In this document: positions 1-54,256 of the stretch, in pieces
How the letters are laid out: every line of letters starts with the position of its first letter
How positions within the stretch are numbered: position 1 is the stretch's first letter
Source of the DNA: a virus
Taxonomy: Duplodnaviria > Caudoviricetes
Virus record (IMG/VR): IMGVR_UViG_3300020042_002590
Coordinates: 1-55,335 of that record
DNA: 55,335 bases
Reading direction: 5' to 3' (one strand)
Program-made: the position numbers and the translations under genes
Notes under the pieces: generated by a model
What the model saw: only the letters and a program-made list of their open reading frames with translations
Database searches by the model: none
Told to the model about the DNA's origin: nothing

Positions 1-2255
1 AAAAAGACACCCGCGACCGCAGAGATTGGATTCAAACCTACGTCGAAGGCTTGAAGCTTCTGGGTCTGCGCTATGAAGAGCGTACAGAACCTTGGGCAGG
101 AGCCTGCGGTGTATTTCACCCAATGCTGACCGAGTCTGTTGTCAGGTTCCAGTCAGAAGGTATTACCGAGACATTCCCAGCGATGGGGCCGGTCAAGACC
201 AAGATCATCGGCAAAGAGACTCCAGAGACCGAAGAAGCTGCGCAGCGCGTCCAAGAGGACATGAACTATCAGTTGACCGAGGTGATGACTGAGTACCGCC
301 CAGAGCATGAAAAACTTCTGTGGTCTTTGCCCATTACCGGCTCGGCCTTTAAAAAGGTCTACTACGACCCATCAAAAGGTCGTCAGATGGCTGTGTTCAT
401 CCCCGCAGAGGACTTGGTTGTTCCTTATGGTGCACGGGATATTGAGTCTTCAGAGCGTGTTACCCACGTAATGCGCAAGACCAAGAACGAGGTTTTGAAG
501 CTTCAGGAGTCGGGTTTCTACCTAGATGTTGATCTTGGCGACCCCGGCTATGAGCTTGATGATGTTGAGAAGCAGAAATCAGAAGAAAGCGGCATGTCTG
601 CTATCCAAGATGACCGCTACCGCATCCTTGAAATGCACGTAGACATTGACCTTAAAGGCTTTGAGCATACAAACGACAAGGGTGAGAAGACCGGCATTGC
701 CTTGCCTTACGTTATTACAGTTGAGAAAAGCACCGCAGAGATTCTTTCAATAAGGAGAAATTGGTATGAGGGAGACGAACTGCACATTAAGCGACAGCAT
801 TTTGTCCACTACCAATACATCCCCGGTGATGGCTTCTATGGTTACGGTCTTATCCACCTTATCGGGGGCTACGCAAAATCTGCAACCATGCTCATCCGAC
901 AGCTTGTTGATGCTGGCACGTTGTCTAACTTACCCGGAGGTCTTAAATCTCGCGGCCTGCGCATTAAAGGAGACGACACCCCCATCCAGCCCGGAGAGTT
1001 CCGAGATGTAGATGTGCCAAGCGGGTCTATCCGCGACAATATCTTACCGTTGCCTTACAAAGAACCAAGTCAGGTTCTGTTTGCCTTATTCCAAAACATC
1101 GTAGAAGAAGGCCGTTCTTTTGCCAACGGCGGGGACATGAATGTCTCCGACATGTCTGCGCAGGCTCCTGTAGGCACAACACTGGCTATTCTGGAAAGAA
1201 CCCTGAAGGTCATGGGCGCAGTCCAGTCTCGTATGCACTTCTCAATGAAGCAAGAGTTCAAGCTCTTGAAGGTGATCATTGCCGACTACGCGCCAGAAGA
1301 CTACGACTACGAGCCAGAAGAGGGTAGCCGTGCCGCCCGTAAATCTGATTACGACAGCACAGACGTAATACCCGTCAGCGATCCCAATGCCTCCACAATG
1401 GCGCAGAAGATTGTCCAGTATCAGGCAGTTCTTCAGTTAGCTCAGGGTGCGCCCCAGTTGTATGACCTGCCCTTGTTGCACCGTCAGATGATTGAGGTTC
1501 TTGGGGTAAAGAACGCTCATAAGCTGGTCAAAACTGAAGATGACCAAGTGCCGACCGACCCTGTTCAGGAAAACCAAAACATCTTGACGGGCAAGTCGGT
1601 AAAGGCTTTTGTGGAGCAAAACCACGAAGCTCACATCCAAGTCCACATGATGGCAATGCAAGATCCCAAGATTGCCCAAATCATGGCCCAAAACCCACAA
1701 GCTCAGATGATGCAAGCGGCAATGCTTGCGCACATCAACGAACACACTGGGTTCCAGTACCGCCTTGAGATTGAAAAGCGCATGGGCATGGTCTTGCCGA
1801 CAGAAGAGCAAACCAAGCAAGTTCCTCCAGAAATGGCGGACAACCTTGCAATCATGGCGGCAGAAGCAGCCAAACAACTGTTCCAGCAAAACAGCCAAGA
1901 AGCTCAGCAACAGCAGGCTCAGCAGCAAATGCAAGATCCTATCGTTCAGATGCAGATGCAAGAACTCCAGATCAAGCAGGGCGAGTTGCAGCTTAAGCAG
2001 CAAAAACAACAGATCGACGCAGCAGCAAAGGCTGACCAGATCCGTATTGAAGAAGCCCGTATTGCCGCGCAGAAAGAAATTGCAGCCATGCAGGTATCGG
2101 CAAAAGCTGCCGAGAGCAAGGATCGTTTAAACAAACAAATGGAATTGGACGGGTCTCGCTTAGGTGTGGACATCGCCAAACATCGCAGCCAAATGGCTGT
2201 GCAAGCCGCGCAAAGAACTGCGCAACAACTTCCTAACAAACCCAAGAAAGGTTAA
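1..2255 (+). CDS. Portal protein (5'-truncated; frame is open from base 3, so the true start lies upstream of the window)
   Basis: Frame reads KDTRDRRDWIQTYVEGLKLLG... into the 734-aa ORF; podovirus-type portal motifs (HPMLTESVVRFQ, GSAFKKVYYD, LVDAGTLSNLPGG); Gln-rich coiled-coil C-terminus; first gene of the head module. Confidence 0.85.
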   Translation, partial: KDTRDRRDWIQTYVEGLKLLGLRYEERTEPWAGACGVFHPMLTESVVRFQSEGITETFPAMGPVKTKIIGKETPETEEAAQRVQEDMNYQLTEVMTEYRPEHEKLLWSLPITGSAFKKVYYDPSKGRQMAVFIPAEDLVVPYGARDIESSERVTHVMRKTKNEVLKLQESGFYLDVDLGDPGYELDDVEKQKSEESGMSAIQDDRYRILEMHVDIDLKGFEHTNDKGEKTGIALPYVITVEKSTAEILSIRRNWYEGDELHIKRQHFVHYQYIPGDGFYGYGLIHLIGGYAKSATMLIRQLVDAGTLSNLPGGLKSRGLRIKGDDTPIQPGEFRDVDVPSGSIRDNILPLPYKEPSQVLFALFQNIVEEGRSFANGGDMNVSDMSAQAPVGTTLAILERTLKVMGAVQSRMHFSMKQEFKLLKVIIADYAPEDYDYEPEEGSRAARKSDYDSTDVIPVSDPNASTMAQKIVQYQAVLQLAQGAPQLYDLPLLHRQMIEVLGVKNAHKLVKTEDDQVPTDPVQENQNILTGKSVKAFVEQNHEAHIQVHMMAMQDPKIAQIMAQNPQAQMMQAAMLAHINEHTGFQYRLEIEKRMGMVLPTEEQTKQVPPEMADNLAIMAAEAAKQLFQQNSQEAQQQQAQQQMQDPIVQMQMQELQIKQGELQLKQQKQQIDAAAKADQIRIEEARIAAQKEIAAMQVSAKAAESKDRLNKQMELDGSRLGVDIAKHRSQMAVQAAQRTAQQLPNKPKKG

Positions 2256-2257
2256 TT

Positions 2258-2455
2258 ATGGATGCAACTCGTGTATTGCAGCACGTGCGAAAAGAGCTTG
2301 AAACCATCCGCAATGAGCAGGTGGAATTTTTAGCCAGTGGAAGAGTGACTGATTTTGCCGAGTATCGGCACGTTTGCGGGGTGATTCGAGGTCTTGGTCA
2401 CGCAGATGGTTTTATATCCGACCTTGCGAAAAAAATGGAGTACTCCGATGACTGA
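2258..2455 (+). CDS. Small conserved phage protein (between portal and GroES)
   Basis: 65-aa ORF tightly packed after the portal; G..DFAEYR..CG.IRGL pattern typical of this slot. Confidence 0.7.
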   Translation: MDATRVLQHVRKELETIRNEQVEFLASGRVTDFAEYRHVCGVIRGLGHADGFISDLAKKMEYSDD

Positions 2456-3831: not shown

Positions 3832-3832
3832 C

Positions 3833-5171: not shown

Positions 5172-6083
5172 ATGGCTATTTCACGCGCACAACTACTCAA
5201 AGAACTCTTACCCGGCTTGAATGCCTTGTTTGGTATGGAGTATGCTCGTTACGGCGAGGAACATAAAGAGATTTATGAAACCGAAACCTCAGAGCGTTCT
5301 TTTGAAGAAGAGACCAAGTTGTCTGGCTTCTCAGCCGCACCTGTCAAGAACGAAGGCTCAGCCATCGCTTATGACAATGCGCAAGAGGCATGGACTACAC
5401 GCTACAACCACGAAACCATTGCTTTGGGTTTCTCAATCACTGAAGAGGCGATTGAAGATAACTTGTACGACAGCTTGTCTGCTCGTTACACCAAAGGTCT
5501 GGCTCGTGCTATGGCTTACACCAAGCAGGTCAAAGCTGCTGCTATTCTGAACAACGGTTTCTCTGCCGCCTATCCCGGTGGCGACGGCGTTGCTTTGTTT
5601 AGCACTGCTCACCCCTTGGTTTCTGGTGGTACTACCTCCAACCGCCCTGCCACTGCTGCTGACTTGAATGAAACTTCGTTGGAAAACGCTGTTATTCAGA
5701 TCGCTGCATGGACAGACGAGCGTGGTTTGTTGATCGCCGCCAAGCCCAAGAAGCTGATTGTTCCCCCTGCATTGCAGTTCGTGGCTACCCGCCTGTTGGA
5801 AACCAACCTCCGTGTTGGCACTACCGACAACGACATCAACGCATTGAAGAACAATGGCTCTATCCCTGAAGGCTACACCATTAACCACTACCTGACCGAC
5901 ACAAACGGCTGGTATTTGACTACTGATGTGCCTAACGGTCTGAAGCATTTCGTTCGTTCACCCCTTGCCAACAGCATGGACGGTGACTTTGATACCGGCA
6001 ACGTCCGTTACAAAGCCCGCGAGCGTTACAGCTTTGGCTGGTCTGATCCATTGGGAATGTTCGGTTCCCCCGGTTCGGCTTAA
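5172..6083 (+). CDS. Major capsid protein (HK97 fold, Mu gpT-like family)
   Basis: MAISRAQLLKELLPGLNALFG...DGVALFSTAHP...KLIVPPALQF...GNVRYKARERYSFGWSDP; highly biased codons; followed by a terminator. Confidence 0.9.
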   Translation: MAISRAQLLKELLPGLNALFGMEYARYGEEHKEIYETETSERSFEEETKLSGFSAAPVKNEGSAIAYDNAQEAWTTRYNHETIALGFSITEEAIEDNLYDSLSARYTKGLARAMAYTKQVKAAAILNNGFSAAYPGGDGVALFSTAHPLVSGGTTSNRPATAADLNETSLENAVIQIAAWTDERGLLIAAKPKKLIVPPALQFVATRLLETNLRVGTTDNDINALKNNGSIPEGYTINHYLTDTNGWYLTTDVPNGLKHFVRSPLANSMDGDFDTGNVRYKARERYSFGWSDPLGMFGSPGSA

Positions 6084-6120: not shown

Positions 6121-6133
6121 ATTGTTTAAACTC

Positions 6134-9109: not shown

Positions 9110-9339
9110 AAGCACCGCAGACTTCCCTTAAAAACTGGGGTGACCAGAAATGGCGCACCAAGTCGGGAAAGCCTTCGTCAAAAACAGGTGAGAGGTATCT
9201 TCCTGAAGCCGCTATCAAGTCTTTGTCTTCTGCTGAGTATGCTGCCACAACCAAAGCCAAGCGCAAGGGCAAGGCGGCGGGTAAGCAGTTTGTTGCCCAG
9301 CCCAAAGGTATAGCAAAGAAAACGGCAGGATTTAGATAA
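9106..9339 (+). CDS. Small basic protein (C-terminal half of a DUF5872-like family)
   Basis: TTG start overlapping the previous TGA, GGAGG RBS; QTSLKNWGDQKWRTKSG...ERYLPEAAIKSL...GKQFVAQP. Confidence 0.6.
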   Translation: MKAPQTSLKNWGDQKWRTKSGKPSSKTGERYLPEAAIKSLSSAEYAATTKAKRKGKAAGKQFVAQPKGIAKKTAGFR

Positions 9340-10265
9340 TGGCAAACACCTCTGGCGCAGTAAGTTTCAACCTAGACCTCACCGAGTTGGTGGAGGAAGC
9401 GTTTGAACGCGCCGGTGGTGAGCTTCGCACCGGATATGACCTGCGTACAGCCAGACGCAGTTTAAACATCATGTTTGCTGATTGGGCAAACCGTGGCATC
9501 AACCTGTGGACGATTGAGACCGGCACGATTGACTTTGTGCAGGGCCAGAACACCTACGCCCTGCCAGACGACACCATTGATTTACTTGAGCATGTGATCC
9601 GTACAGGCGCTAACGTAGCCGCAACTCAGGCTGACTTGAGTATCACAAGAATTAGCGTTTCTACCTACGCCACAATCCCCAACAAGATTCAACAAGCCAG
9701 ACCTATTCAGGTTTGGATTCAACGGTACAACGGTCAGACTTCGCCGACAGGGATAACCCTAAATGGTGCAATCACAGCCACTTCAACTGAAATTACGCTA
9801 AGTACTGCAATTGGTTTGCCAGCCGCTGGGTTTGTAAAGATCGACAACGAGATCATCAACTATAGCTACATAGACGGGAACACCCTATATAACTGTTTCC
9901 GGGGTCAGCAAAACACAACCGCCGCAAGCCACACAAGTACGACTGCTGTCTATTGGCAGCAAGTTCCAGCGATCACCGTTTGGCCTACCCCAGACAATGC
10001 ACAGCAATACCAATTTGTGTATTGGCGGCTGCGACGTACCCAAGACGCAGGCGGCGGTGTCAACATCATGGATGTGCCTTTTAGATTCTTGCCTTGTATG
10101 GCGGCTGGCCTGTCGTATTACATCGCCGGAAAGATTCCAAACGGCGCAGAGCGCATCCCATTCCTCAAGACGCAGTATGACGAGGCGTGGGAGCTTGCAG
10201 CCTATGAAGATCACGAGAAGGCAGCTTTGAGACTTGTACCCCGTCAAGCCTACATTGGGAGGTAA
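9339..10265 (+). CDS. Head-tail adaptor/connector-like structural protein
   Basis: DLTELVEEAFERAG...ARRSLNIMFADWANRGINLWT...TVWPTPD...PFRFLPCMAAGLSYY. Confidence 0.6.
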   Translation: MANTSGAVSFNLDLTELVEEAFERAGGELRTGYDLRTARRSLNIMFADWANRGINLWTIETGTIDFVQGQNTYALPDDTIDLLEHVIRTGANVAATQADLSITRISVSTYATIPNKIQQARPIQVWIQRYNGQTSPTGITLNGAITATSTEITLSTAIGLPAAGFVKIDNEIINYSYIDGNTLYNCFRGQQNTTAASHTSTTAVYWQQVPAITVWPTPDNAQQYQFVYWRLRRTQDAGGGVNIMDVPFRFLPCMAAGLSYYIAGKIPNGAERIPFLKTQYDEAWELAAYEDHEKAALRLVPRQAYIGR

Positions 10266-10267: not shown

Positions 10268-10693
10268 GTGAGTAATCGTTATGCCTCCGGCAGACATGCA
10301 ATTTCGGAGTGTGATCGGTGCGGACAACGGTTTAAACTGAAGACTCTGAAGACTGAGATCATCAAGACAAAACAATATAACTTGTTGGTTTGTCCGGCTT
10401 GTTGGGATCCAGACCATCCTCAGTTGCAGTTGGGTATGTACCCCATCGATGACCCGCAGGCTTTGAGGAATCCACGCCCTGATCGCAGTTATGTGCTTTC
10501 AGGCACAAACGGGTTGCAGCTTGACCCAACCGGCACTGGGATTGATGGAGCAGGAACGGTAGAAGGCGGCAGTCGAATCTTCCAATGGGGTTGGTATCCT
10601 GTTGGCGGGGCGAGTGGATTTGACGCAGGGCTGACACCAAATAACTTGGTTTTAGCGATAGAACTTGGTACAGTAACGGTTACAACGACATAA
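10268..10693 (+). CDS. Hypothetical protein with CxxC...CxxC
   Basis: GTG start; ECDRCG...VCPACWDPDHPQL...DPQALRNPRPD. Confidence 0.65.
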   Translation: MSNRYASGRHAISECDRCGQRFKLKTLKTEIIKTKQYNLLVCPACWDPDHPQLQLGMYPIDDPQALRNPRPDRSYVLSGTNGLQLDPTGTGIDGAGTVEGGSRIFQWGWYPVGGASGFDAGLTPNNLVLAIELGTVTVTTT

Positions 10694-41501: not shown

Positions 41502-41808
41502 CCTCCTTTGTTTTCTTTTCCCTGCGTTTGAGTTTGTTCAACTCGGTCTCAACCAACTCGGCAAACGATGCGCCCGACGGAAACCGCATCTGCGCAGGTT
41601 TCATGTCGTTTACAGCGTCAATGGACTTATCTACGCCAGCGTTAAAGCCAGCCTGATATGGGTCACCATTGACCATACGTTGGGAGATTGCCTCCCTGAT
41701 GATCTGCGCCATAGGTAGCTTTGTCTGCTTTGAAAACTTCTTGAGCTTGTCGATCTCTGTCGGCTCCAAGTACGCCATGAAAGGCTTGTACTGCTTAAAA
41801 TGGGTCAT
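41461..41808 (-). CDS. Ribbon-helix-helix DNA-binding protein
   Basis: FMAYLEP..IDKLKKFS.QTKLPMAQIIREAI. Confidence 0.6.
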   Translation of the reverse strand: MTHFKQYKPFMAYLEPTEIDKLKKFSKQTKLPMAQIIREAISQRMVNGDPYQAGFNAGVDKSIDAVNDMKPAQMRFPSGASFAELVETELNKLKRREKKTKEVANVEGGNIKESV

Positions 41809-42564: not shown

Positions 42565-42864
42565 TCAAAAAGGAATATCGTCATCAGGGAAGTCGTTCTG
42601 CGGTGCTGGCGCAGGTGCTTCCAACTTGGCTTTGGGGATGTAACGGTCAACAGCCAGCGACAGGTATGTCTTGCCGCTCTTGCTTACCTTCTTCCACCCA
42701 CTCAGTTTGATGATGGTCATACCATCCTCAGTGCGAACATTCGTCATGTCCTTGAGGTTGATGGCAATCTCACCAAAGTAATCCTTGCCCAACGGGTTGG
42801 TCTTGGATTGGACAGCGTGTAGGTTGCCGCTGTCGGGACGGGGTTTAAATGTGTTATCACTCAT
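42565..42864 (-). CDS. Putative single-stranded DNA-binding protein
   Basis: Small OB-like core (LSGWKK..KSGKTYLSL) and acidic DDDIPF tail; next to the annealing protein. Confidence 0.6.
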   Translation of the reverse strand: MSDNTFKPRPDSGNLHAVQSKTNPLGKDYFGEIAINLKDMTNVRTEDGMTIIKLSGWKKVSKSGKTYLSLAVDRYIPKAKLEAPAPAPQNDFPDDDIPF

Positions 42865-43555
42865 TTACTTGCTCCTTTTCTTGCAATGCCTTCTTCTTCT
42901 CGGCAAATGCGTTACGAACCTGTGCGTATAGCTCAGGGTGACTTACTTTCAAGCCATCAAGCTGAACCTGATTGGCCTTCCAATAACTGTTTAAACCTTT
43001 AACGTCTTGGTCGTTGAGGCTCAGAAGCTCAACCATGCCAGCGGCAAATAGCTCTGCGTTGTTCTCAGCATCCTTGATGGCTGGGATGGCTTTGGCTACA
43101 GGCGCTGAAATCTGCACATCAACTGCCGCAGTTTCTGTCGTTACGGTCATCGTTGCTGACGCATCCTCAAGGGGGAGATCATCTCCAGCATAGATGTATA
43201 AACCGAGTCCCTGCATGGCAATCGACTTAACCAAGCACCGCATGATCGCTGTATTGATATCCATTGCGTTGGGGTGAGGGATGGGCTTGTTGCGGTAGTC
43301 CAACACAGGAAGCTGGCAAGTGATGGCTTTGCCAAAGATGGTTGTAGTCACCCACACCATCGCTGAGTCGCCAAAATTCATCAACACCGTCTGACCTATA
43401 CCTGTCCCGTCAGCCCACAGCTCTACCTTCCATGTGGCGGCTGGATCAGCCTTTAAAACCTCAGTCCACGCGTACGCCCATGACAAATATGTCATGCCGT
43501 TCTTCTTCTCTGTGCGGTCGTTCACGTTAATCTTTAAAAGCTCTTGCGTATTCAT
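42857..43555 (-). CDS. Sak3/DUF1071-type single-strand annealing protein
   Basis: EKKNGMTYLSWAYAW...LPVLDYRNK...INTAIMRCLVKSIAMQGLGLYIYAGDDLP. Confidence 0.85.
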   Translation of the reverse strand: MNTQELLKINVNDRTEKKNGMTYLSWAYAWTEVLKADPAATWKVELWADGTGIGQTVLMNFGDSAMVWVTTTIFGKAITCQLPVLDYRNKPIPHPNAMDINTAIMRCLVKSIAMQGLGLYIYAGDDLPLEDASATMTVTTETAAVDVQISAPVAKAIPAIKDAENNAELFAAGMVELLSLNDQDVKGLNSYWKANQVQLDGLKVSHPELYAQVRNAFAEKKKALQEKEQVNE

Positions 43556-43887
43556 AACAATCCTTTGTAAAAAATTCCTGCCTCTTTGAAATCATCAAAC
43601 TCTTTTGCCTGACTGTTCTCTATTTGAAACCTTATGGTTTTGGTAAAGAATCCCCTGTCAGTCTCCCAAGGTTTAACAACGTATGTGTGGGGTCTGTCTG
43701 ACTTGCCCTCTTTCTTTGACTGTTTAAATAACAACAGACACAAGTAAACCCCACGATGCGAGTTGATCACCAAGTACTTACCCTTCTTGGGTATGCTTAA
43801 CTTCCGCTTGGTACTGTTTGCACCACTGTGCAACTCCGCAGTAGTTTCCTGCGCATCGGGTGTACTCTCCTTGTCTTGTTTCAACAT
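43552..43887 (-). CDS. Hypothetical protein (start uncertain)
   Basis: Fills the gap between exonuclease and Sak3; 5' part overlaps the exonuclease. Confidence 0.35.
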   Translation of the reverse strand: MLKQDKESTPDAQETTAELHSGANSTKRKLSIPKKGKYLVINSHRGVYLCLLLFKQSKKEGKSDRPHTYVVKPWETDRGFFTKTIRFQIENSQAKEFDDFKEAGIFYKGLL

Positions 43888-44653
43888 ATCCTTTTTCCTT
43901 TTCTGCCAACTCTGTGGCTTCTTCTAGCGTTTTAAAAACACGGATCGCAGTCTTACGACCCTCCCTCTTCGTTGCATAGGTGGTTTCTTTTGCCCACCTT
44001 TCCTCATCGGTGCAGGGCTGTAAGTCCTCACCAAAATCATGTGCCATCTTGGCTTCTCTGTGCATCTCCAAACGAGTGCGCACGTATGTCTCAGCCTTGA
44101 CTGCGTCCCATAGCGGAACATCAATCATTACCGCCTCCGCTTCGGGGTAGCCCTCTTTGGTCTCATGTTGGCTGTAGTCCTTAATAAAAGCGCAGATCTG
44201 AAGCCGCTTGACAGGCTTGCGCTTGGCTTTCTCGACCAACCATTTGTAGACGTTAAGCTGGGTCTCCCAATCAGACTTGTTCATCATTACCGACCAAGCC
44301 TTGACGAACTTGTAGTCCACAATCTCCACGCCGTCAGGGTCATCCTTCTGAAGATCAATCTGCCCACTGATGGTGATGCCATCTATCTCTACGTAGATGC
44401 GCTCCTCGTTGATGTAGCCCTCAATCTCCTTGGCTTCCAACTTGCCATGCATGAATGTCCCAAACTGAGAGGCAAGCATGGAGGTAACATCAATCTCTAT
44501 CTGATTATCATATTGTTCGCGCAACCGTCTAATTTTTGGTGGCGACATAAGCTCAGTAACGCTATACTGAGATGCGCCTTTTGTGTAGAAGTTGCGAGTC
44601 AACAAAGCCACGACTGGCGGGGGTAAATTCTGTTTATTGGTTATCTTCATCAT
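43778..44653 (-). CDS. PD-(D/E)XK exonuclease (Cas4/RecB-like)
   Basis: SVTEL...GTFMH...ISGQIDL...IVDYK...QLNVY; C-terminal Cys cluster RCAGNYCGVAQWC. Confidence 0.8.
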   Translation of the reverse strand: MMKITNKQNLPPPVVALLTRNFYTKGASQYSVTELMSPPKIRRLREQYDNQIEIDVTSMLASQFGTFMHGKLEAKEIEGYINEERIYVEIDGITISGQIDLQKDDPDGVEIVDYKFVKAWSVMMNKSDWETQLNVYKWLVEKAKRKPVKRLQICAFIKDYSQHETKEGYPEAEAVMIDVPLWDAVKAETYVRTRLEMHREAKMAHDFGEDLQPCTDEERWAKETTYATKREGRKTAIRVFKTLEEATELAEKEKGYVETRQGEYTRCAGNYCGVAQWCKQYQAEVKHTQEG

Positions 44654-44700
44654 CACTCCAAGGGATTTGTATGGACACAGGACATGATAATAGTGCTTGT

Positions 44701-45114
44701 ATGGATGAATTGCAAGCACTATCTTTAATTATTTTTGGGGAGCCTGCAAGTAAGGCCAACTCAAGGCGGGTTGTGAAGTTTGGCAACATGTCCAGACTCA
44801 TCAAATCGCAGAAGGCTCTGGACTACTCTGAAGCGTTTAAACGGCAATGCCCACCTTTGGCAAAGCTGATGTCCGGAGATATAAAGATGACCATGTGGAT
44901 TTATTACGCCAGCCGCAGACCTGACTTGGACGAGTCTTTGATCTTGGATCTGCTGCAAGGGTTGGTGTATTTAAACGACCGTCAGGTAAAGGAGCGGCAT
45001 GTGTTCTGGAGGCTGGATAAGGACAAGCCCCGGGCGGAAATGATCATTGAGCAGATTCCGCCTGTTTACACAGAAAAAAAGCCCGCAACGAGGCGGGCTA
45101 AAAAAGGAGAGTGA
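44701..45114 (+). CDS. RusA-like Holliday junction resolvase
   Basis: GEPASKANSRR...RRPDLDESLILDLLQG.VYLNDRQV. Confidence 0.75.
   Translation: MDELQALSLIIFGEPASKANSRRVVKFGNMSRLIKSQKALDYSEAFKRQCPPLAKLMSGDIKMTMWIYYASRRPDLDESLILDLLQGLVYLNDRQVKERHVFWRLDKDKPRAEMIIEQIPPVYTEKKPATRRAKKGE
45074..45100 (-). terminator. Rho-independent terminator on the - strand
   Basis: On -: AGCCCGC-CTCGTT-GCGGGCT-TTTTTT. Confidence 0.65.
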
Positions 45115-45211: not shown

Positions 45212-45308
45212 TCCTGTTGTCGTCGAAGTCAACAGTAGTGAAGCCATTTACACATGCCTCGCCCCGTTAAGGGGAACTTCGACGGGGCAGTTGTAAGTGG
45301 CTTTTTTA
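45212..45308 (+). ncRNA. Candidate structured small RNA/attenuator with pseudoknot
   Basis: Hairpin CTGTTG/CAACAG; long stem AAGCCATTTACA/TGTAAGTGGCTT plus T-tract; loop CGTCGAAGT complementary to ACTTCGACG. Confidence 0.55.
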
Positions 45309-45589
45309 TTGCCCCTCCTACTTCAGCCGTACTCCATACGATAGCAAGAGTTCAGCCTGACTGCGTGGAAGAAAAGGGTTACACGGTAAGCGTAAAGGCG
45401 CGGGGCAACTACCCTCAACAATCCGTGGTGCTGGTCTAATTTGCAAGCACAGGGGCGTTGACGCAAGTCAACCATGCAAATGCCGTAAGGCGGGTGAACC
45501 TCCTCTCCAACTCCATTGTTCGCATTGGGGAAGGGGGGTCTTTGGGGTGAATTTATCAACAAGCCCCGCAAAGGGGCGTTAAAAGGAGA

Positions 45590-45796
45590 GTGACGATGAG
45601 AATATATTTAATTGCAAGTAACAGGGGTGTACGTCTTGTACGTGCCAACACAAGAGCGCAGGCTTTGAATCATGTAGCCTCGCAGGAGTTGACGGTCAGG
45701 GTTGCATCGCAGGATGACTTAGTCAAGTATTTAGCAGAGGGCAGCTCAGTTGAGACAGTAGTTGCGCCCGACCAAGGAAAACTAGATCTTATATAA
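45590..45796 (+). CDS. Hypothetical protein
   Basis: AAGGAGA RBS (start GTG 45590 or ATG 45596); RLVRANTRAQALNHVA. Confidence 0.65.
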   Translation: MTMRIYLIASNRGVRLVRANTRAQALNHVASQELTVRVASQDDLVKYLAEGSSVETVVAPDQGKLDLI

Positions 45797-46307: not shown

Positions 46308-46530
46308 ACAAGAATACAAAACGCAAGTTGGGCGGGGCGAACACGAAAACCGCATGGAGCGTCAACGAGCAAGGCGCAAGCTTGACGCAAAAGGCGTAGA
46401 CCGTGCAGGCAAGGACGTAGCCCACGTCAAAGCTTTAAGCAAGGGAGGCTCTAACGCTACTGGCATCAAGCTCGAAGCACCAAGCAAGAACCGAAGCTTT
46501 AAACGCAAGTCCGACGGCAGCATGAAATGA
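46291..46530 (+). CDS. HNH-like small protein, possibly degenerate
   Basis: RARRKL...GKDVAHVKALSKGGSN...NRS. Confidence 0.6.
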   Translation: MPRNFKQEYKTQVGRGEHENRMERQRARRKLDAKGVDRAGKDVAHVKALSKGGSNATGIKLEAPSKNRSFKRKSDGSMK

Positions 46531-48230
46531 TTGCAGAGTTAGTTGAGTCAACATACTTCAACGAAACTGCTCGCGTATCTTGCCCTTTCTGCTCGCCCGA
46601 ACGCAGGAAATCAAATAGTAAAGATATGACCTTGACCCGCAAAGATGACGGCGCGGTTGTCTATCACTGCCACCATTGTTTTGCCAATGGATCTGTGCAA
46701 CCCGAAAAAAAGGAATTCAAATTGTCTGCCGTCCCATCCAAAACGGTCATCAACCAACCACTATCTCAACCCCACTACGACTGGCTCATGTCACGTGGGA
46801 TCTCTCAACAAACCGCAGACAAGTTCAAACTGTTTGCCGCAGACAAGTACTTCAACAAGATAGGCAAGGTCACATCTGCGGTTGGCTTTCCCTACTTCAG
46901 AGACGGCGCATTGATTGCCACCAAGTACAGATCAATTGATGCAAAGGACTTCACCCAAGACATGGGCGGGGCGCATGACTTCTTTGGCATAGACCAAGTT
47001 AAAGCAGGCGAACCCATCATCATTGTCGAGGGAGAGATGGATGTCCTGTCCGCTGTCGAGGCAGGTTTAAACAACGTGGTTTCAGTTCCTTCAGGCGCAC
47101 CCGTCAAGGTTGCGGACGGAAAAGTGCTTCCGTCTGAGGATAAAAAGTTTGCCTTTGTATGGAATGCGCGGGAAGTTCTTGAGAAAGCACCCTACATCGT
47201 ATTGGCTACAGATCAAGACAGCGCAGGGCAAGCGTTAGCCGAGGAGTTGGCAAGACGTATTGGCAAAGACAAATGCAGGCTGGCTAAGTTCCACAAGAAA
47301 GATTTAAACGAAGTCCTGATGGATGACGACCCAACGCTAGATGATCACCCGTCAAAGCTAATACAGAAGATCATTGATGACGCACAGCCGTACCCGATCA
47401 GCGGACTCACCGACCCAAGCGCATACTTTGATCGTTTAAACGATCTCTGGGCAAAGGGATCTGGCAAAGGGTTCAGCACAGGTTATCCCTCCATAGATGA
47501 TGTTTACACGATAGCGCCTGCACAGATGACGGTGGTGACAGGCTACCCCAGTTCGGGTAAGTCCAACTTTGTTGATCAGATCATGGTCAACTTAGCCGCC
47601 AAGTTTGATTGGAAGTTTGCGGTCTGCTCGTTTGAGAATCAGCCTGAGATCCACATCAGTCGGTTGATGGAGATCTACACAAAGAAAAGATTCTTTGATG
47701 GGCGGGACAGGATGACTGACTCAGATAAAGAGGATGCGTTTAAATTCGTACAGGAACACTTCCTCTTCATTGACACAAACGGTGAAGAGCCTAGCACCCT
47801 TGAGTCGATACTTGAGAGGGCAAAGGTTGCTGTTAAACGCATGGGTGTACGTGGCTTGGTCATTGACCCATACAACTACATCGATCTCAATAAGACCAAC
47901 AGCACAGAGACAGAAGCAATCAGCAATATGTTGACCAAGGTACAGAAGTTCTGTAAAGCCTTTGACGTGCATACGTGGTTCGTTGCCCATCCCTCAAAGA
48001 TCAATCGATCAGGCGTAGACCAGCCCCGCCCTGATGGCATGTCGATATCAGGATCTATGGCGTGGTGGGCAAAGACTGACTGCGGCATCACCGTCCACAG
48101 GGGCGACAGGAATGTCGTTGAAATTGCAGTATGGAAGTGCCGCTATAGGTGGGTGGGTACACAAGGGGAAACGACCCTGCTCTACAACAAAGTGAGCGGG
48201 ACTTATGAGGAAAACCTAGACAACTTCTAG
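46527..48230 (+). CDS. Primase-helicase (T7 gp4/Twinkle-like)
   Basis: Zn ribbon CPFC...CHHC; TOPRIM IVEGEMD and ATDQDSAG; Walker A GYPSSGKS; VIDPYN; VAHP. Confidence 0.92.
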   Translation: MIAELVESTYFNETARVSCPFCSPERRKSNSKDMTLTRKDDGAVVYHCHHCFANGSVQPEKKEFKLSAVPSKTVINQPLSQPHYDWLMSRGISQQTADKFKLFAADKYFNKIGKVTSAVGFPYFRDGALIATKYRSIDAKDFTQDMGGAHDFFGIDQVKAGEPIIIVEGEMDVLSAVEAGLNNVVSVPSGAPVKVADGKVLPSEDKKFAFVWNAREVLEKAPYIVLATDQDSAGQALAEELARRIGKDKCRLAKFHKKDLNEVLMDDDPTLDDHPSKLIQKIIDDAQPYPISGLTDPSAYFDRLNDLWAKGSGKGFSTGYPSIDDVYTIAPAQMTVVTGYPSSGKSNFVDQIMVNLAAKFDWKFAVCSFENQPEIHISRLMEIYTKKRFFDGRDRMTDSDKEDAFKFVQEHFLFIDTNGEEPSTLESILERAKVAVKRMGVRGLVIDPYNYIDLNKTNSTETEAISNMLTKVQKFCKAFDVHTWFVAHPSKINRSGVDQPRPDGMSISGSMAWWAKTDCGITVHRGDRNVVEIAVWKCRYRWVGTQGETTLLYNKVSGTYEENLDNF

Positions 48231-48232: not shown

Positions 48233-48270
48233 AAAAGAAAAGGGGGATAAGAAATCTTATCCCCCTGTTT
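48233..48270. terminator. Terminator between convergent units
   Basis: AGGGGGATAAG-AAAT-CTTATCCCCCT, A-tract upstream and GTTT downstream. Confidence 0.75.
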
Positions 48271-48280
48271 AAACGCTTCT

Positions 48281-48478
48281 TTAATCTTGCTTGTCGAGGT
48301 AATCACCTAGCGGACGACTAAACTTTTCGGGTGTTCTGCCCATTTGCATACCAAGAATAAAAATAGCATCATCACGACTCTTGGCAACAAGGCCAAGCCC
48401 TAACACGCCAATCTCGTCATAGTATTCTGCCATCCAAACTTTGAGGTCTTTTATGTATTTAACTTTGATACTCATCAC
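48281..48478 (-). CDS. Hypothetical early protein
   Basis: AGGAG RBS. Confidence 0.55.
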   Translation of the reverse strand: MMSIKVKYIKDLKVWMAEYYDEIGVLGLGLVAKSRDDAIFILGMQMGRTPEKFSRPLGDYLDKQD

Positions 48479-48560
48479 ATCTCCTAGTTAAGGTTGTTAC
48501 TGTTTAAACATAACGCAGCAGCCAGCAGCAGCTCACCAGATGAGCTTCGAGCTTGACTGT

Positions 48561-48800
48561 TTAAACAAGCCGAGCTTTAAAGACTGCGGACAGGATGTTG
48601 TCATAGCGACCCCAATATCTAGGGGTTGCAAGATGCACCTTGGATTTGACGTAGACCAGCCATGCCCCATTGTCATGCTTGATGTAGGCTTCGCCCTTGG
48701 GTATGTAGGAATGGTCAGCGACCAATGCAATACAAGCCCATTTGGACACTTCAGCATGAAATTTGGCACAGGGTTGGTCAATTATCTTTACAACCCTCAT
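48561..48800 (-). CDS. Hypothetical early protein
   Basis: ATGA overlap with the upstream gene. Confidence 0.5.
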   Translation of the reverse strand: MRVVKIIDQPCAKFHAEVSKWACIALVADHSYIPKGEAYIKHDNGAWLVYVKSKVHLATPRYWGRYDNILSAVFKARLV

Positions 48801-49078
48801 GCACTTACGCTGATAGGCTGACCACGATAAAACATCGGATCGCCATTACGCTTGCAGTTGGCATAAAGAATAATCGCAGAGTGGATCGTGTCCCAGTTCA
48901 AGCCATAGTTGGCATCAAACGCAGTCTCAGCAACACGCATAACGTTTAAACAGTCTTCATCGGTAAACCCTGAAGCATCCTCAATGTTTTCTGTTTCAAT
49001 GCAGTTGCGTATGTCTTCAATACTCCACTCGTCACGCAATACCCACTCGTCATCGTTTCCTTGAATTAATCTAGCCAT
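48797..49078 (-). CDS. Hypothetical acidic early protein
   Basis: WSIEDI...FTDEDCLNVM...FDANYGLNWDTI; GGGAG RBS. Confidence 0.65.
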   Translation of the reverse strand: MARLIQGNDDEWVLRDEWSIEDIRNCIETENIEDASGFTDEDCLNVMRVAETAFDANYGLNWDTIHSAIILYANCKRNGDPMFYRGQPISVSA

Positions 49079-49230: not shown

Positions 49231-49476
49231 TTAACCCCCAACAATTTCAGTAAAAACTTGCTCGTTGATTGGTAGGTTTTCAAAATACAAATAACCATCC
49301 TCAACAGCTATCGCCAAAAGATATTTGTTTAAACACTTACCCGTGTAGTAAATATCGAGTGGCTCTTCAATCTTTACGGCAAGCCTAAAGTCAGCACGAC
49401 CCAAGCCAACATCAACAATCGTTGGCTCAAGTCCAAAGCCACGCAAGTCAGCAATAATATTTAAAGCATCCATCAA
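49231..49476 (-). CDS. Hypothetical early protein
   Basis: GAGG RBS; gene chain. Confidence 0.55.
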   Translation of the reverse strand: MMDALNIIADLRGFGLEPTIVDVGLGRADFRLAVKIEEPLDIYYTGKCLNKYLLAIAVEDGYLYFENLPINEQVFTEIVGG

Positions 49477-50245: not shown

Positions 50246-50472
50246 GCCAACTCCTTAAAGTTAAATGGAACATTCACCTCGCTCAGAATATCCCCATCGC
50301 AGTCATAGACAGTCACATTAAAGAAATCCAACTCTTGGCGGATATGCACATAGCCACCGTCCTTTGTCACCTCACGTTGTTCAGTGTCGTACACATCAAA
50401 GTTCACGACAACTGAGTCATCATCAAGTCTGTCTGTACGCATCAAAATATTTTCATGGTCTTGCAGTTTCAT
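50242..50472 (-). CDS. Hypothetical acidic protein
   Basis: AAGGAG RBS. Confidence 0.6.
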   Translation of the reverse strand: MKLQDHENILMRTDRLDDDSVVVNFDVYDTEQREVTKDGGYVHIRQELDFFNVTVYDCDGDILSEVNVPFNFKELA

Positions 50473-50773
50473 TTTCTTTCTCCTTTGTGTTTAAACGTTT
50501 ATCCAATCGGATGGATTCTTTGTGTGCGGCGGCGAGTGCGAGTTCAATGGTTGTGTGTGCTGAAAGGTTGACCCACCCCACATTGCGCTTGCGAACAAGC
50601 GAAACAATATAAGGGCGTTTGCGATCAACATCGACCCACCTACTCAAATTGCGCCACGACTGATGCCTGATGTAAATAAAGTCGCCGTGCTTGAGGCACT
50701 CAAGCCAAGGCGTGGTCACCAGCGAGTCGTGGAGCGCACCTTTCGGTATACCCTCACCTAAAAATATTTTCAT
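50453..50773 (-). CDS. Hypothetical protein
   Basis: ATG 50773 after AAGGAG. Confidence 0.55.
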   Translation of the reverse strand: MKIFLGEGIPKGALHDSLVTTPWLECLKHGDFIYIRHQSWRNLSRWVDVDRKRPYIVSLVRKRNVGWVNLSAHTTIELALAAAHKESIRLDKRLNTKEKENETARP

Positions 50774-50784
50774 TTCAATTCTCC

Positions 50785-50967
50785 TTATGAATAGGTGTTT
50801 GCTTTGACTTGCTCGTGGTAGAGTTTGACCAAGCGATCTTGCACCTCGCCCCAACCCTTATCCCAATACAACTCTTGTAGCGCCATGCCAATAGACCAAC
50901 GCACATCTTCATCATCTTCCATATGGTCTACCGCCTCAGCGATCAATGCATCAATATCAATCTTCAT
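50785..50967 (-). CDS. Hypothetical protein
   Basis: GAGGAG RBS. Confidence 0.55.
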   Translation of the reverse strand: MKIDIDALIAEAVDHMEDDEDVRWSIGMALQELYWDKGWGEVQDRLVKLYHEQVKANTYS

Positions 50968-51121: not shown

Positions 51122-52768
51122 TTATGCGGCTAGTTTGATTTGTTTAAATGATGCAGTACCGAGGTCTGCAATGCTCTTCACGTGTACGTTGTTTGAGTAA
51201 ACATCGCTCACGTTGTACTGGATACCGACCCCGATAGTCGTGATTCCAAGGCGCTCACCCACTTGCGCCTGATGCTTGGCGGCGGCTTTGTGACCATCGC
51301 CATCGGTGATAACGAACATCACCTTGCGCTCTTCATGCCTTTGCAAAAGCAGACCGTGCCCGTAGCGGATTGCAAAGTAATCATTCGACCCGCCACCTGC
51401 CTCAATACGCACCAGCAAGTCATTAACCTTTTTGTGATTCATGTCGAAAGGTTTCAGCACGGCGGTGCTATCGCCAAAGGTCAGCACACAAGTGGCTACA
51501 CCAGCACGGTTCAGCGTGTCCAGCAGGGCGGCAGTGGTCTGAATGGCGGCAGTCATGCGCTCGGCATCGGGGTTGCCATAGTCCCTAAACATAGACCCTG
51601 AAATGTCCAGTGCGATAACCACTGCACTGTCGATGCCCTCGGTCTCTTGCCTGCGTTTAAACAGGCGCTCACCGCCCATCGCCACATTGGGTAAGGCGTG
51701 GACATTGATTGACCCTGCCTTGCGGTTGCGTTGAAATTCAGACAAGCCTGAGTTTTCAAACAGGCGCTTGACCTCATAGCGTAACTTGGCGGGGACAGTG
51801 GGCAGGATGGTGAATCGACCATCGGGGCGGCTATTTATATCCGCATGGTTAGTCGCCTCGGTCAAGCCTGATCCCTCGCAATACCCGCCCGAACCGCCAC
51901 TCTCATCAGGCGCTTGGTTGGTAGGCTCGACCTCGACAGGCTCGGAGTGCTCATCAGGCGCAGAGGCTTTGCCTACGCCATCGCCATCGACCGCCTCACC
52001 GCCCTTACCCTCACCCTCGCCCTCTGCATCGCCGTCAGAGGCGCTCTCACCCTCGCCCTGACCCTCACCCTCACCCTCGCCGTCTTTGCCCTCTTCCTGA
52101 CCATCCTGATCGGTCTCAGACCCATCGCCTTGGTCATCGCCTTGGTCATCTTGCTGGTCATCATCTAAGTGCTGGAGTTGATCCATCATCCACTTTGCGA
52201 CTCGCAGGGTATCGGTGCTGGATGAGCAATCATCAATCATCAGCGATGCCTTGTAAAAGATCGACTGCAAGCCCGTTGCAAGCGGTACACGCTTGGCATA
52301 GCGGCGACCATAGGCGGCAAAGACAAAAGGATATTGCAAGGGGTCAGCCCAATCGATCTTTGCCTCAAAAGCCTTGTCGATCATGTTGTTGATCACATTG
52401 GCAAGCAATGCTTCAATGTTGCCTGTCAATTTGACATTGATGGCGGTGCGCTCAATCCAAACATCCTCGACTGCATTGTGAAGCTTGGCAAGGTAACGTG
52501 TATCGCCACGCACGTTGAAGTCAGTGTATTTGCGGTGCAGTAGTTCATGCACCACGTACCCGCAATAGTCTTCAAACACCGCACGACTCACCACTGCATC
52601 ATCAGCAATGTCAGCCAACTGGATCACGCCACGCCCATTGATACAGGCGGTTTGAACACCGACTGACCAATAGAGGGATACTGGTTTCAAGCCAAGAAAC
52701 TTGCAGACCTTGTGGCAAAGGGAAGTGACCCCCGCCCGTACCTCATAGCCTTTGTAAAATGCTTTCAT
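51122..52768 (-). CDS. CobT-like protein: N-terminal HExxH domain, acidic linker, vWA domain
   Basis: YVVHELLH...NAVEDVWIE; D/E/G-rich linker; MIDAS LDISGSM; ITDG. Confidence 0.8.
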   Translation of the reverse strand: MKAFYKGYEVRAGVTSLCHKVCKFLGLKPVSLYWSVGVQTACINGRGVIQLADIADDAVVSRAVFEDYCGYVVHELLHRKYTDFNVRGDTRYLAKLHNAVEDVWIERTAINVKLTGNIEALLANVINNMIDKAFEAKIDWADPLQYPFVFAAYGRRYAKRVPLATGLQSIFYKASLMIDDCSSSTDTLRVAKWMMDQLQHLDDDQQDDQGDDQGDGSETDQDGQEEGKDGEGEGEGQGEGESASDGDAEGEGEGKGGEAVDGDGVGKASAPDEHSEPVEVEPTNQAPDESGGSGGYCEGSGLTEATNHADINSRPDGRFTILPTVPAKLRYEVKRLFENSGLSEFQRNRKAGSINVHALPNVAMGGERLFKRRQETEGIDSAVVIALDISGSMFRDYGNPDAERMTAAIQTTAALLDTLNRAGVATCVLTFGDSTAVLKPFDMNHKKVNDLLVRIEAGGGSNDYFAIRYGHGLLLQRHEERKVMFVITDGDGHKAAAKHQAQVGERLGITTIGVGIQYNVSDVYSNNVHVKSIADLGTASFKQIKLAA

Positions 52769-52783
52769 GTTTAAACGCTCCTT

Positions 52784-54256
52784 TTAACTGTTGTCACGGA
52801 TGTAAGTGGCATCGATACAGGCGGCGTAAACGCTCGCCAATGTAGCGTGGGATTCGGCGGGTTGGCGGCTGACTACAGCAGACTTCCATGCCTCTTCAAC
52901 TGAGAGCATCGCCAATGCCCGAATGAAACCGATCACTGAGCGGATCGATGGGGCATCCACGATATCGCCTGTGGTCACCTTGGATCGGGCAACATGGATC
53001 GCCTTTAGCACGTGCCTTGCTACCTCATCAGTGCAACCAGTGTGGCGCACCACTGCCTCGACCTCTTGCTTCATTGGCAAAAAGTCAAAGCGGACGACAC
53101 GGGCAAAGCGGTCAATCAAAGCGCTATTCATGGTGCGTGTACCAGCGTACCGTCCTGAGTCATCGCCATTGCCCAATGTGTTATCAGCGGCAAAAACCAT
53201 CACCCCGTTGGCTTTGCGGCGTACTGCACCGCCGTAGGACACGGCGCTGTTAGGCTCTAGAAAACCATTGAGCGGGGCAAGTTCACCAGCATCAGCGTTG
53301 GTCACTTCATCCAGCAGAATGATTGTGCTAGGGCACGTATACGCCATCAGAAAATCTTTAGGCTGAAACACTGTCTCGCCGTTGACCAAGCCAACAGCAC
53401 CCAAATAATCCTCTGCCGAGGTGTACTTGTGGAAGTTGATACGCACGTAGTTACGTCCAGTACGGGCGGCAAATTGTCTAGCGGTTTCGCTCTTGCCTGT
53501 ACCCTTTTCACCGCCGAACCACAAGTGTTCGCCCGTAGACTGAGACAACAACAATTGTTTCAGAATGGACTCAGTCCAAATAAAGTTGGGATCAATCGCA
53601 GGGGCATTGGGGTGATTCCAAATGTCAACTCCGACAATGTCGCCCTTTGCGTTGCGTACATCAACACCAAAAACCTCACGCACCGACTTGCATTCAGTTA
53701 TGTAGACCCCCGCAAGGTCAGCAACATCGGTCATCACCTCGGCAGTCACTGCCTGTTTAAACGGGGCAAAAGTGTCTGCGACTGCCTTGGCGACTTGATT
53801 TTGCAGGGCTATAGGGTCAACCTCACCTTTGACCTCGCCAAGCTTTTGATTCAGTGAGCGCTCAAGCTTGACAAGCTTGGTATCCACTTCCATGCTCATG
53901 TCAGCTACTTTGCTGATCCTTGTCACAAGGTCATTCATCCCCTGCCTAGTGGTCATCGCAAGTTGATGGGCTTCCAGCGATGCATCCATCGCCCGATTAG
54001 TAGTGGCTTCCAGCGCCGTTAATGCAGGGTCACTGCTACCGCCTGACAGGGGGCTTGTTGTTGGCAGGGGAGTGGCGGCTTTGATCACCGCCAAGGTCAT
54101 ATCGCCACGGGCAACCGCCCCCGCAAGGTTCGTTGCCATGTCGCCAACGCTACTGCCATTCGCCCCAAAATGGGACAAATGTGCGCCCCTTATAGTCGCA
54201 CTGCCAAGGCGGCTGATTTCAACTGCAATTCTGCTGATTTCGATTTTGGTAGTCAT
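52784..54256 (-). CDS. CobS/MoxR-like AAA+ ATPase
   Basis: Walker A GEKGTGKS, Walker B ILLDE, AADNT.G.GD...NSALIDRF; adjacent to the vWA gene. Confidence 0.85.
   Translation of the reverse strand: MTTKIEISRIAVEISRLGSATIRGAHLSHFGANGSSVGDMATNLAGAVARGDMTLAVIKAATPLPTTSPLSGGSSDPALTALEATTNRAMDASLEAHQLAMTTRQGMNDLVTRISKVADMSMEVDTKLVKLERSLNQKLGEVKGEVDPIALQNQVAKAVADTFAPFKQAVTAEVMTDVADLAGVYITECKSVREVFGVDVRNAKGDIVGVDIWNHPNAPAIDPNFIWTESILKQLLLSQSTGEHLWFGGEKGTGKSETARQFAARTGRNYVRINFHKYTSAEDYLGAVGLVNGETVFQPKDFLMAYTCPSTIILLDEVTNADAGELAPLNGFLEPNSAVSYGGAVRRKANGVMVFAADNTLGNGDDSGRYAGTRTMNSALIDRFARVVRFDFLPMKQEVEAVVRHTGCTDEVARHVLKAIHVARSKVTTGDIVDAPSIRSVIGFIRALAMLSVEEAWKSAVVSRQPAESHATLASVYAACIDATYIRDNS

Follow-up and report, generated by a model that had tools for sequence, protein, structure and literature searches.

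GTTTAAAC, an over-represented octamer palindrome selected across a family of freshwater phages

We analysed the IMG/VR virus record IMGVR_UViG_3300020042_002590, a stretch of 55,335 bp (~89% complete; hereafter "the window"), in which a preliminary description had pointed out a highly iterated octamer palindrome, GTTTAAAC. This word is a real, selected, family-wide cis-element. It is under selection, is spread over the phage family and beyond, is replaced by near-cognate words in some lineages and lacks polarity, and mosaic junctions between related phages coincide with it in excess. We tentatively favour the interpretation that GTTTAAAC is a selected, dyad-symmetric site for a protein that binds or cuts DNA and travels with the phages, and at the same time a preferred crossover point, rather than an imprint of the host. 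The window encodes structural proteins (portal, HK97-type head, tail-fibre and ejection proteins), a polyvalent protein of 3,355 aa, a Sak annealing protein, a PD-(D/E)XK nuclease, a ribbon-helix-helix (RHH) protein, an HNH endonuclease, a T7 gp4-like primase-helicase and a MoxR/VWA pair.

Over-representation of GTTTAAAC in the window and in related phages

The window contains 32 exact copies of GTTTAAAC, corresponding to 0.58 per kb. All 31 positions listed in the preliminary description carry the exact word, and one copy, at 35708-35715, had been overlooked. Shuffling that preserves dinucleotides (n = 100) produced 1.10 copies on average (standard deviation 0.99, maximum 4) and not once 32, and the reversed, non-complemented control word occurs twice in the window. 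Analytic Markov models predict 1.05, 0.84 and 2.8 copies at orders 1, 2 and 3, and 6.9, 14.9 and 27.5 copies at orders 4, 5 and 6, respectively. The high orders approach the observed count because the 6- and 7-mers on which they rest derive from the motif itself; the 7-mers GTTTAAA and TTTAAAC, present 47 and 45 times, are mostly supplied by it. Hence, these models provide no valid refutation. For a codon-preserving null, synonymous codons were permuted within each open reading frame (ORF) 500 times while the five non-coding copies were kept fixed (ORFs are greedy calls throughout, not the output of a gene finder). This null yielded 6.9 copies on average (standard deviation 1.3, maximum 11), which leaves 27 observed coding copies against ~2 expected. 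When four genomes were pooled, 160 copies were observed and 4.9 expected. Disappearance of the enrichment under a higher-order Markov or codon-preserving null had been proposed at the outset as the outcome that would speak against the element. The enrichment persisted in the shuffles, at low Markov orders and under the codon-preserving null, whereas the high-order models match the count in a circular manner only.

Within genes, 18 of the 27 coding copies are read as xGT-TTA-AAC and nine as xxG-TTT-AAA-C, and none occupies the frame containing TAA. Leu-Asn is spelled TTAAAC in 27 of 73 instances, with TTA accounting for 14% of the Leu codons, and Phe-Lys is spelled TTTAAA in 24 of 44. The non-coding copies start at 6124, 14599, 48267, 48502 and 52769, in agreement with the initial statement that copies lie in genes in differing frames as well as in intergenic DNA. 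The assumption that these phages avoid palindromes also proved correct for the window. Nineteen six-base palindromes are completely absent (e.g. TGGCCA, expected 31 times, CAGCTG, 25 times, and CTGCAG, 20 times), as are CCWGG (109 expected) and GGWCC (76 expected). As the genome has been purged of other palindromes, the enrichment of GTTTAAAC runs against its general rule. The set of absent restriction sites differs from relative to relative (in relative G001, CGCG counts are 0 versus 134), and GTTTAAAC is also the top octamer palindrome in some related contigs that do not avoid CCWGG.

A survey of related phages, as suggested by the preliminary description, detected the enrichment throughout the family. 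Relatives were identified through the primase-helicase, which matched 221 related stretches of viral contigs. Among octamer palindromes, GTTTAAAC ranks first in 77 of 80 loci and in 22 of another 25 distinct ones (99 of 105 in total), and complete relatives carry 43, 39 and 46 copies. Public sequencing runs in which the stretch occurs derive from freshwater or lake metagenomes of many studies. Five isolated, distant relatives, whose portal proteins are 35-46% identical, have 0-3 copies and show no enrichment. The sole megablast match of the window to isolated phages is a tail-fibre segment of 641 bp. Our literature search retrieved no phage with an over-represented palindrome of such kind, and every match to GTTTAAAC was a cloning primer.

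Viral contigs were also scanned for close pairs of sites. Among the matches listed, 35 of 118 loci had at least four sites and at least 0.4 sites per kb; again among the matches listed, most were family members, including the distant member G455. However, the word is not confined to the family. G453, a complete phage of 41,750 bp (35% GC) whose terminase and head proteins belong to other families, possesses 34 copies of GTTTAAAC, nearly all in the form TGTTTAAACA, and no copy of the control word, and a primase of the window's family was not detectable in it. Overall, GTTTAAAC-rich phages span 35-57% GC and avoid differing restriction sites. A fragment of 7,509 bp (G451, identical to locus L390) contains 19 copies (2.5 per kb), and every TTTAAA in it is part of a full GTTTAAAC. 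It may represent a third phage group with the word; its match to the family is weak and primase-like.

Comparison of orthologous sequences revealed that sites are retained more often than random octamers (background): 8 of 11, 5 of 9 and 4 of 11 aligned copies are kept in relatives, compared to 18%, 10% and 10%, respectively. Sites arise by synonymous as well as by amino-acid changes. This is well illustrated by 81 primase genes, which use seven site positions and carry 1.3 sites per gene on average. Where a primase encodes R-L-N at the relevant position, it is spelled CGT-TTA-AAC in 61 of 65 cases, while other positions gain the site via a change of the protein to R/G-L-N.

Recognition profile and coincidence with mosaic junctions

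Inspection of the flanks of the 160 sites in the four genomes revealed a pyrimidine at position -1 in 67% and a purine at position +1 in 79% of cases, giving the fuller consensus YGTTTAAACR. Beyond that, there is no conservation, and GTTTAAAC is therefore not part of a longer dispersed repeat. Among the 12 classes of one-mismatch variants, GTGTAAAC (9.3-fold), CTTTAAAC (5.7-fold), ATTTAAAC (5.5-fold) and GTATAAAC (3-fold) are enriched and the others are not. A purely mutational, sequence-directed process, one of the origins considered initially, fits poorly with these data, as inner transitions are not enriched and one transversion variant is enriched 9-fold. The pattern resembles a binding profile rather than decay, and together with the near-cognate substitutions described below, it suggests that the word is a protein binding site, as had also been proposed.

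The six contigs in which GTTTAAAC is not the top octamer palindrome carry substitutes. Locus L020 contains no GTTTAAAC and 20 copies of GTTTAAAT; G004, L078 and L234 use A/C-TTTAAA-G/T (MTTTAAAK), i.e. words of the CATTTAAATG and TCTTTAAAGA types; and L240 and L244, with 0 and 2 copies of TTTAAA, have 8 and 14 copies of GTTTACAC. A density near 1 per kb persists even where restriction pressure forbids the palindrome. The asymmetric substitutes show no bias relative to the gene strand (6:5, 3:3 and 10:9). Persistence of the function without the palindrome, combined with this lack of polarity, argues against a role at the RNA level and against a transcription-polar or Chi-like role, and fits a symmetric reader of duplex DNA. 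GTTTAAAC is the site of PmeI and TTTAAA that of DraI/AhaIII. The absence of GTTTAAAC or TTTAAA from some relatives is what would be expected where such enzymes act; however, restriction explains loss of the word and not its 30-fold gain. Three cyanobacterial genomes (G154, G037 and G067) contain 0, 10 and 10 copies of GTTTAAAC against 96, 108 and 100 copies of the control word, as expected for restriction of the PmeI type.

A link to recombination, raised initially as one possible role, is supported by the distribution of mosaic junctions. In a set of 84 family sequences, the ends of homology blocks (at least 85% identical) were located relative to the sites. Within 3 nt of a site, 114 of 1091 block ends were found (1.8% expected), and these ends peak sharply at the outer edge of the site, where identity drops from 84% before to 26% after. 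When counted as independent clusters, 32 of 355 junctions are at a site. The excess is present inside ORFs (9.2% versus 1.4%) and at ORF edges (11.7% versus 4.2%), and overall ~9-10% of the mosaic junctions lie exactly at a site compared to ~2% expected. Sites specific to one lineage lie in locally more divergent DNA.

One example in the window is a cassette of 235 bp at 48275-48509 (minus strand), which comprises the small ORF 48281-48478 (-) and a second site, and is bounded by GTTTAAAC on both sides. It is present in the window and missing from relatives G011 and G012, and contigs of two public runs represent the cassette-less form, joined exactly at 48274. Among the 15 joints listed (of at least 55) between run contigs and the window, this kind of site-bounded joint was seen once. 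The copy at 48267 is abutted by a hairpin at 48238-48269 (+) with arms of 15 nt and a loop of 2 nt, and the same core precedes a copy in G001.

In this respect, GTTTAAAC is reminiscent of the promoter-early stem-loops (PeSLs) of T4-type phages, which flank small non-essential genes and bound indels and replacements between close relatives (PMC2839356). Similarly, GTTTAAAC bounds indels and replacements, with a site at one end at least in 22 of 86 clean insertions, though most junctions are elsewhere, and several intergenic copies are located behind a hairpin. However, PeSLs are composite intergenic elements of a sigma-70 promoter and a terminator and are tens of bases long, whereas copies of GTTTAAAC have only 8-10 bases in common, mostly reside within conserved genes and follow hairpins at some intergenic positions only.

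On the interpretation that we favour, a sequence-specific DNA-binding or DNA-cutting protein would read GTTTAAAC/YGTTTAAACR. The reader would probably be a phage-encoded dimer, candidates being the HNH endonuclease, the RHH protein and small early proteins. The sites are kept at ~1 per kb, are most dense in the early/replication and polyvalent genes, are written into genes through synonymous and even amino-acid changes and often edge small gene cassettes; related phages would exchange modules preferentially at them. Binding or cutting of the site may organise early-gene expression or may start recombination by Sak and the PD-(D/E)XK nuclease. A reader that travels with the phages is favoured since no sampled genome is enriched for the word and the enriched phages vary in GC content and in the sites they avoid.

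Several observations weigh against this interpretation. Location of 79% of the sites in ORFs is odd for a plain operator. About 90% of the mosaic junctions are away from sites: of the 86 clean insertions, only 3 are flanked by sites on both sides, 19 have a site on one side and 64 have none, and when the window is taken alone, just ~5 of its 90 distinct block ends reach a site. Moreover, there is no halo of raised synonymous identity around shared sites beyond 15 nt, which argues against a strong hotspot of homologous conversion. Presence of the word in G453 could equally well be due to a shared or conserved host factor, and the negative survey of host genomes (see below) left Actinobacteriota, Verrucomicrobiota and most Bacteroidota, Alpha- and Gammaproteobacteria outside its scope. 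Finally, no reader protein could be pinned down among the candidates examined. The HNH gene is also present in a lineage with a variant motif; the beta-strand by which the RHH protein would read DNA is unchanged across lineages of all motif types; and a protein of 66 aa, missing from the variant-motif loci, is found in only 47 of the 68 loci covering its position.

Regarding these candidates, the HNH endonuclease (39388-39675, -; phrog_131, E 3e-24) is 66-82% identical in four complete relatives and is a candidate reader or cutter, its link to the motif being a matter of conjecture. The RHH protein (Arc-like; 41461-41868, -) had been suggested as reader early on, which is not supported by the beta-strand comparison. 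A co-occurring gene was also sought as proposed. The 66-aa protein (45596-45796, +), which belongs to no known family, and the stretch adjacent to it are absent from variant lineages (0 of 3 variant-motif loci for the protein); however, the correlation with motif type is not a clean one, and both were rejected as gene-content correlates. This adjacent stretch (45300-45590, ~290 bp) looks non-coding, has hairpin-like segments and no Rfam match, is conserved in 34 related loci and is missing from variant-motif loci. It may act as a structured RNA or as an origin.

Alternative explanations for the dense site

A purely regulatory role is the foremost alternative, though we regard it as somewhat unlikely. 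A phage repressor or timing factor would occupy all copies in the manner of stoperators, the bound copies would shut off or partition early transcription, and the junctions would be a by-product of 8-10 bp of microhomology. The distribution of sites is consistent with this idea. The density rises from 0.23 per kb in the structural genes of the window through 0.54 (internal virion genes) and 0.79 (polyvalent gene) to 0.94 (early genes), and G001 follows the same trend. Non-coding DNA, which makes up 5.4-6.4%, contains 34 of the 160 sites (3.6-fold enrichment), and 11.3% of the sites compared to 3.5% expected are no more than 30 nt upstream of a start codon (3.2-fold). Some copies separate the ribosome-binding site from the ATG, and others come after hairpins; in G453, 15 of the 34 copies do not fall in an ORF and cluster amid small genes, at about one copy per small gene; G001 has arrays with four copies 67-69 bp apart behind the primase gene; and an Arc-like RHH protein is conserved. 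Cluster A mycobacteriophages provide a precedent: the repressor gp71 of L5 is described to recognise >20 stoperators distributed over the genome, with lineage-specific versions (PMC9283540, PMC6550527). A single short and specific site present in 32-46 copies per genome is similar to this. However, 126 of the 160 copies (79%) are inside called ORFs and not confined to promoters or short intergenic spaces, including mid-gene positions made by amino-acid change. Stoperators are asymmetric 13-mers bound by a monomer, depend on orientation and occupy the short gaps between genes of temperate phages (PMC9283540), whereas GTTTAAAC is a palindrome of 8-10 bp without polarity. An integrase or an immunity repressor was not found among the proteins scanned, which represent a part of the ORFs, many small ORFs being without a family.

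Alternatively, the word could be driven by the host, which we consider improbable. In this case a host methyltransferase together with repair, or an abundant host DNA-binding protein, would shape all DNA that replicates in the cell, and the phages would mirror the word as cyanophages can mirror HIP1. The preliminary description had likened GTTTAAAC to HIP1, and the statistical part of the likeness holds. In PMC5861425, a palindromic octamer counts as a highly iterated palindrome (HIP) if it exceeds its expectation at least 16-fold and has a density of at least 0.2 per kb. HIP1 and the alternate HIPs GCGATCGC, GGGATCCC, TCGATCGA and CAGGCCTG are enriched tens-fold in cyanobacterial chromosomes, at ~0.5-1 per kb, within and between genes, and are conserved between relatives beyond codon usage (PMC5861425, PMC4390886). 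The window, with 32 copies against 0.8-2.8 expected (orders 1-3), is on the same scale (~30-fold, ~1 per kb), and its copies are likewise conserved beyond codon usage. Furthermore, two phage groups that are structurally unrelated share the word, and a lineage with another restriction-avoidance profile also has another flank preference. The phages also appear to have no methyltransferase of their own to account for it: six-frame searches of five genomes (G000-G004) for PF01555 (N6/N4) and PF00145 (C5), in which the controls responded, were negative, with PF02086, other families and the host being outside the search. The idea of a methylation site thus found no support in these genomes.

The other part of the HIP1 likeness, a host-chromosome imprint, was not recovered in the genomes sampled. 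HIPs are a property of cellular chromosomes, and the window is a virus. GTTTAAAC is not enriched in 442 genomes, comprising 251 evenly drawn cyanobacterial, 181 Burkholderiales and 10 other genomes, most phyla being outside this survey; in the cyanobacterial and Burkholderiales genomes it reaches 3.4 times the control word and ~0.06 per kb at most, and the majority under-represent it. One of the Burkholderiales genomes (G296), which is unpublished, has an ordinary count and bears on none of the conclusions. The GC range of 35-57% and the differing avoided sites of the rich phages suggest several hosts. Within one genome, modules differ 3-4-fold in density, and the profile of variants is not that of mutational decay. 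In addition, and unlike HIP1, GTTTAAAC is AT-rich, depends on the module in its density and occurs in phages that purge palindromes. An approach to the host via two copies within 30 nt was rejected: the matches listed (at least 120) are scattered over many taxa, and the densest pair loci among them (two Brocadia, Nitrospirota, Omnitrophota and UBP2) turned out to be local clusters in genomes that match the control overall. No tRNA was found in a scan of the window, which therefore gives no hint to the host, and an Rfam search of the window returned no family.

A further possibility, to which we also assign a low likelihood, is a portable linker of lytic freshwater phages. A phage nuclease (e.g. 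the HNH endonuclease) would cut at the site and the annealing protein and exonuclease would rejoin the ends, so that DNA between sites would become an exchangeable and invertible cassette. Such integron-like or restriction-and-rejoin shuffling of genes would be common to unrelated phage families, and selection would keep ~1 site per kb even in essential genes, with rewriting to near-cognates under host restriction.

Very unlikely in our view is a self-tag similar to Chi, at which an exonuclease of host or phage would be stopped or modulated to spare phage DNA. The number of copies per kb is 30-60 times that of ordinary bacterial DNA (up to ~0.06 per kb), the density near 1 per kb is kept even under anti-palindrome restriction, and a palindrome would serve either DNA end. 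Known Chi sites lack symmetry, favour one strand and are over-represented in the host (cf. PMC3784561). In contrast, GTTTAAAC has neither polarity nor enrichment in any of the sampled genomes, its density is uneven along the genome, and the phage owns a Sak/nuclease pair. Like Chi and DNA-uptake sequences, GTTTAAAC is short and is maintained by selection at high density, as a word that would mark DNA as "own" for a protein machine; but Chi and uptake words are asymmetric, host-chromosomal and mostly strand-biased (PMC5861425), while GTTTAAAC is palindromic, phage-borne and unbiased.

We likewise see hardly any room for a function in priming or initiation of replication, in which the T7 gp4-like primase-helicase or a host initiator would start at the word. 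The primase has a Cys4 zinc-binding motif (C19, C22, C48 and C51) of the kind that reads template sequence, a palindrome offers the same site on both strands, the ~1 kb spacing of sites resembles the scale of Okazaki fragments, and in G001, copies cluster next to DnaA boxes. However, known primase sites comprise just 3-5 nt, the 3-4-fold lower density in structural genes would be left unexplained, and G453 manages without a detectable primase of this family. An artefact of chance, codon usage or a repeat element, to which only the order-6 Markov expectation of 27.5 could lend support, has a negligible probability and is already refuted: that figure is circular, orders 1-3 give 0.8-2.8 and the codon-preserving null 6.9 copies including the five fixed ones, conservation ends one flanking base out, and the enrichment is repeated in 99 of 105 related contigs.

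Taken together, the statistics of GTTTAAAC are like those of HIP1, its copy number is like that of stoperators, and it bounds cassettes as PeSLs do, but it lacks a defining feature of each of them. Dense short words such as HIP1, Chi, uptake sequences and stoperators have in each case been a clue to a protein machine reading them, and here the word is maintained in a large, abundant and uncultured family of freshwater phages. If its reader is phage-encoded, it would constitute a new pair of genome-wide cis-element and protein in lytic phages, and could open a mechanistic way to study what channels phage mosaicism. Were the reader encoded by the host, GTTTAAAC would be a sharp marker for host prediction. 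Digestion by PmeI/DraI and k-mer counts would flag members of these groups in viromes.

Individual copies and their genetic context

In the structural region, the first copy (2125-2132) is located in the portal gene (3-2255, +) and read xGT-TTA-AAC. The second one (6124-6131) is non-coding and directly 3' of a T-run that follows the major head gene (5172-6083). Copies 9460-9467 and 10330-10337 are within the tail-fibre-like gene (9339-10265, +) and ORF 10268-10693 (+), the latter read xxG-TTT-AAA-C. The non-coding copy 14599-14606 is placed between a Shine-Dalgarno-like AGGAG and the ATG at 14607, and copy 22283-22290 is in a virion protein gene (21988-24348, +). Between these two copies there is no GTTTAAAC, confirming the earlier remark that the fibre/lysis block (14.61-22.28 kb) is free of the word. 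The block has a lower GC content and its orthologues are mostly missing in four complete relatives; yet structural genes are poor in sites anyway (0.23 per kb), so that a gap of this kind is just mildly unusual. Copy 25126-25133 follows in ORF 25035-26819 (+). Two copies are in the ejection-protein-like gene (27226-29334, +), at 28515-28522 and, 27 nt ahead of the polyvalent start, at 29310-29317 near the 3' end of the gene; a block of homology to G011 begins 6 nt ahead of each.

The polyvalent protein gene (29337-39404, +) encodes ART-PolyVal, LPD38 and GP88 domains and harbors copies at 32074-32081, 32438-32445, 34093-34100 (kept in G001), 34321-34328, 35708-35715, 37744-37751 (kept in G003), 37849-37856 (kept in G001, G002 and G003) and 38765-38772. 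Its versions in relatives comprise 3,007-3,271 aa and are just 42-59% identical, and the protein has one domain in common with the unrelated phage G453.

Further along the window, copy 39457-39464 lies within the HNH endonuclease gene and is kept in G001, and copy 41340-41347 is in the early region with uncertain ORF assignment. The Sak single-strand-annealing gene (42857-43555, -), which forms the phage's own recombination pair with the PD-(D/E)XK nuclease gene (43778-44719), contains copy 42989-42996, kept in G001 and G002. At 44835-44842, in the small ORF 44761-44958 (-), the orthologous position of G004 reads ATTTAAAG. Two copies are in the primase/helicase gene (46527-48230, +): 47065-47072, kept in G002, and 47434-47441, which encodes the aforementioned R-L-N as CGT-TTA-AAC, is found in 61 of the 81 family genes and corresponds to GTTTAAAT in G004.

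The non-coding copies 48267-48274, where the homology to G011 and G012 stops, and 48502-48509 mark the left and right boundaries of the 235-bp cassette. Copy 48559-48566 starts 57 nt past the latter, and both, in the form TGTTTAAACA, flank a conserved small hairpin. In G001, four copies with spacings of 67, 69 and 68 bp lie in non-coding DNA behind the primase-helicase gene (24620-24833, corresponding to L086 4620-4833), and the small hairpin of this array recurs in reversed orientation at 48510-48558 of the window. Two small ORFs, 48797-49078 (-) and 49231-49476 (-), contain the copies 48944-48951 and 49327-49334. Near the 3' end of ORF 50453-50854 (-), copy 50489-50496 is kept in G001, and a block of homology to G012 ends at its first base. 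The last three copies are associated with the VWA-domain gene (51122-52768, -) and the MoxR-type AAA gene (52784-54316, -): 51655-51662 is within the former and kept in G001, G002 and G003, 52769-52776 is non-coding, with AAGGAG on one side and the minus-strand start codon (ATG) of the VWA gene on the other, and 53755-53762 is within the latter. This pair of AAA ATPase and VWA protein (51122-54316, -) is CobS/CobT-like and kept across the phage family. Next to it, a SprT-like protein with a C-terminal zinc ribbon (54270-54854, -; phrog_6361) is among the few proteins in common with G453; the window, G001 and G453 have its HExxH motif, which is replaced in G002-G004.

In G001, clusters of two to four perfect DnaA boxes are beside GTTTAAAC copies at 31357-31391 and 32378-32389 (L086), upstream of the terminase region. 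Similar clusters of DnaA boxes are found in G012, G013 and G004, and the window ends ahead of that region. This arrangement hints at the use of host DnaA. An apparent direct terminal repeat of G004 was dismissed as a genome end, as it consists of just 31 nt and is an assembly overlap. Lastly, the phage records OL906435.1, OQ594354.1 and PP438419.1, which name three cyanobacterial hosts, have equal length (65,014 bp) and equal match statistics, and the sequence examined from this trio has 69% GC.

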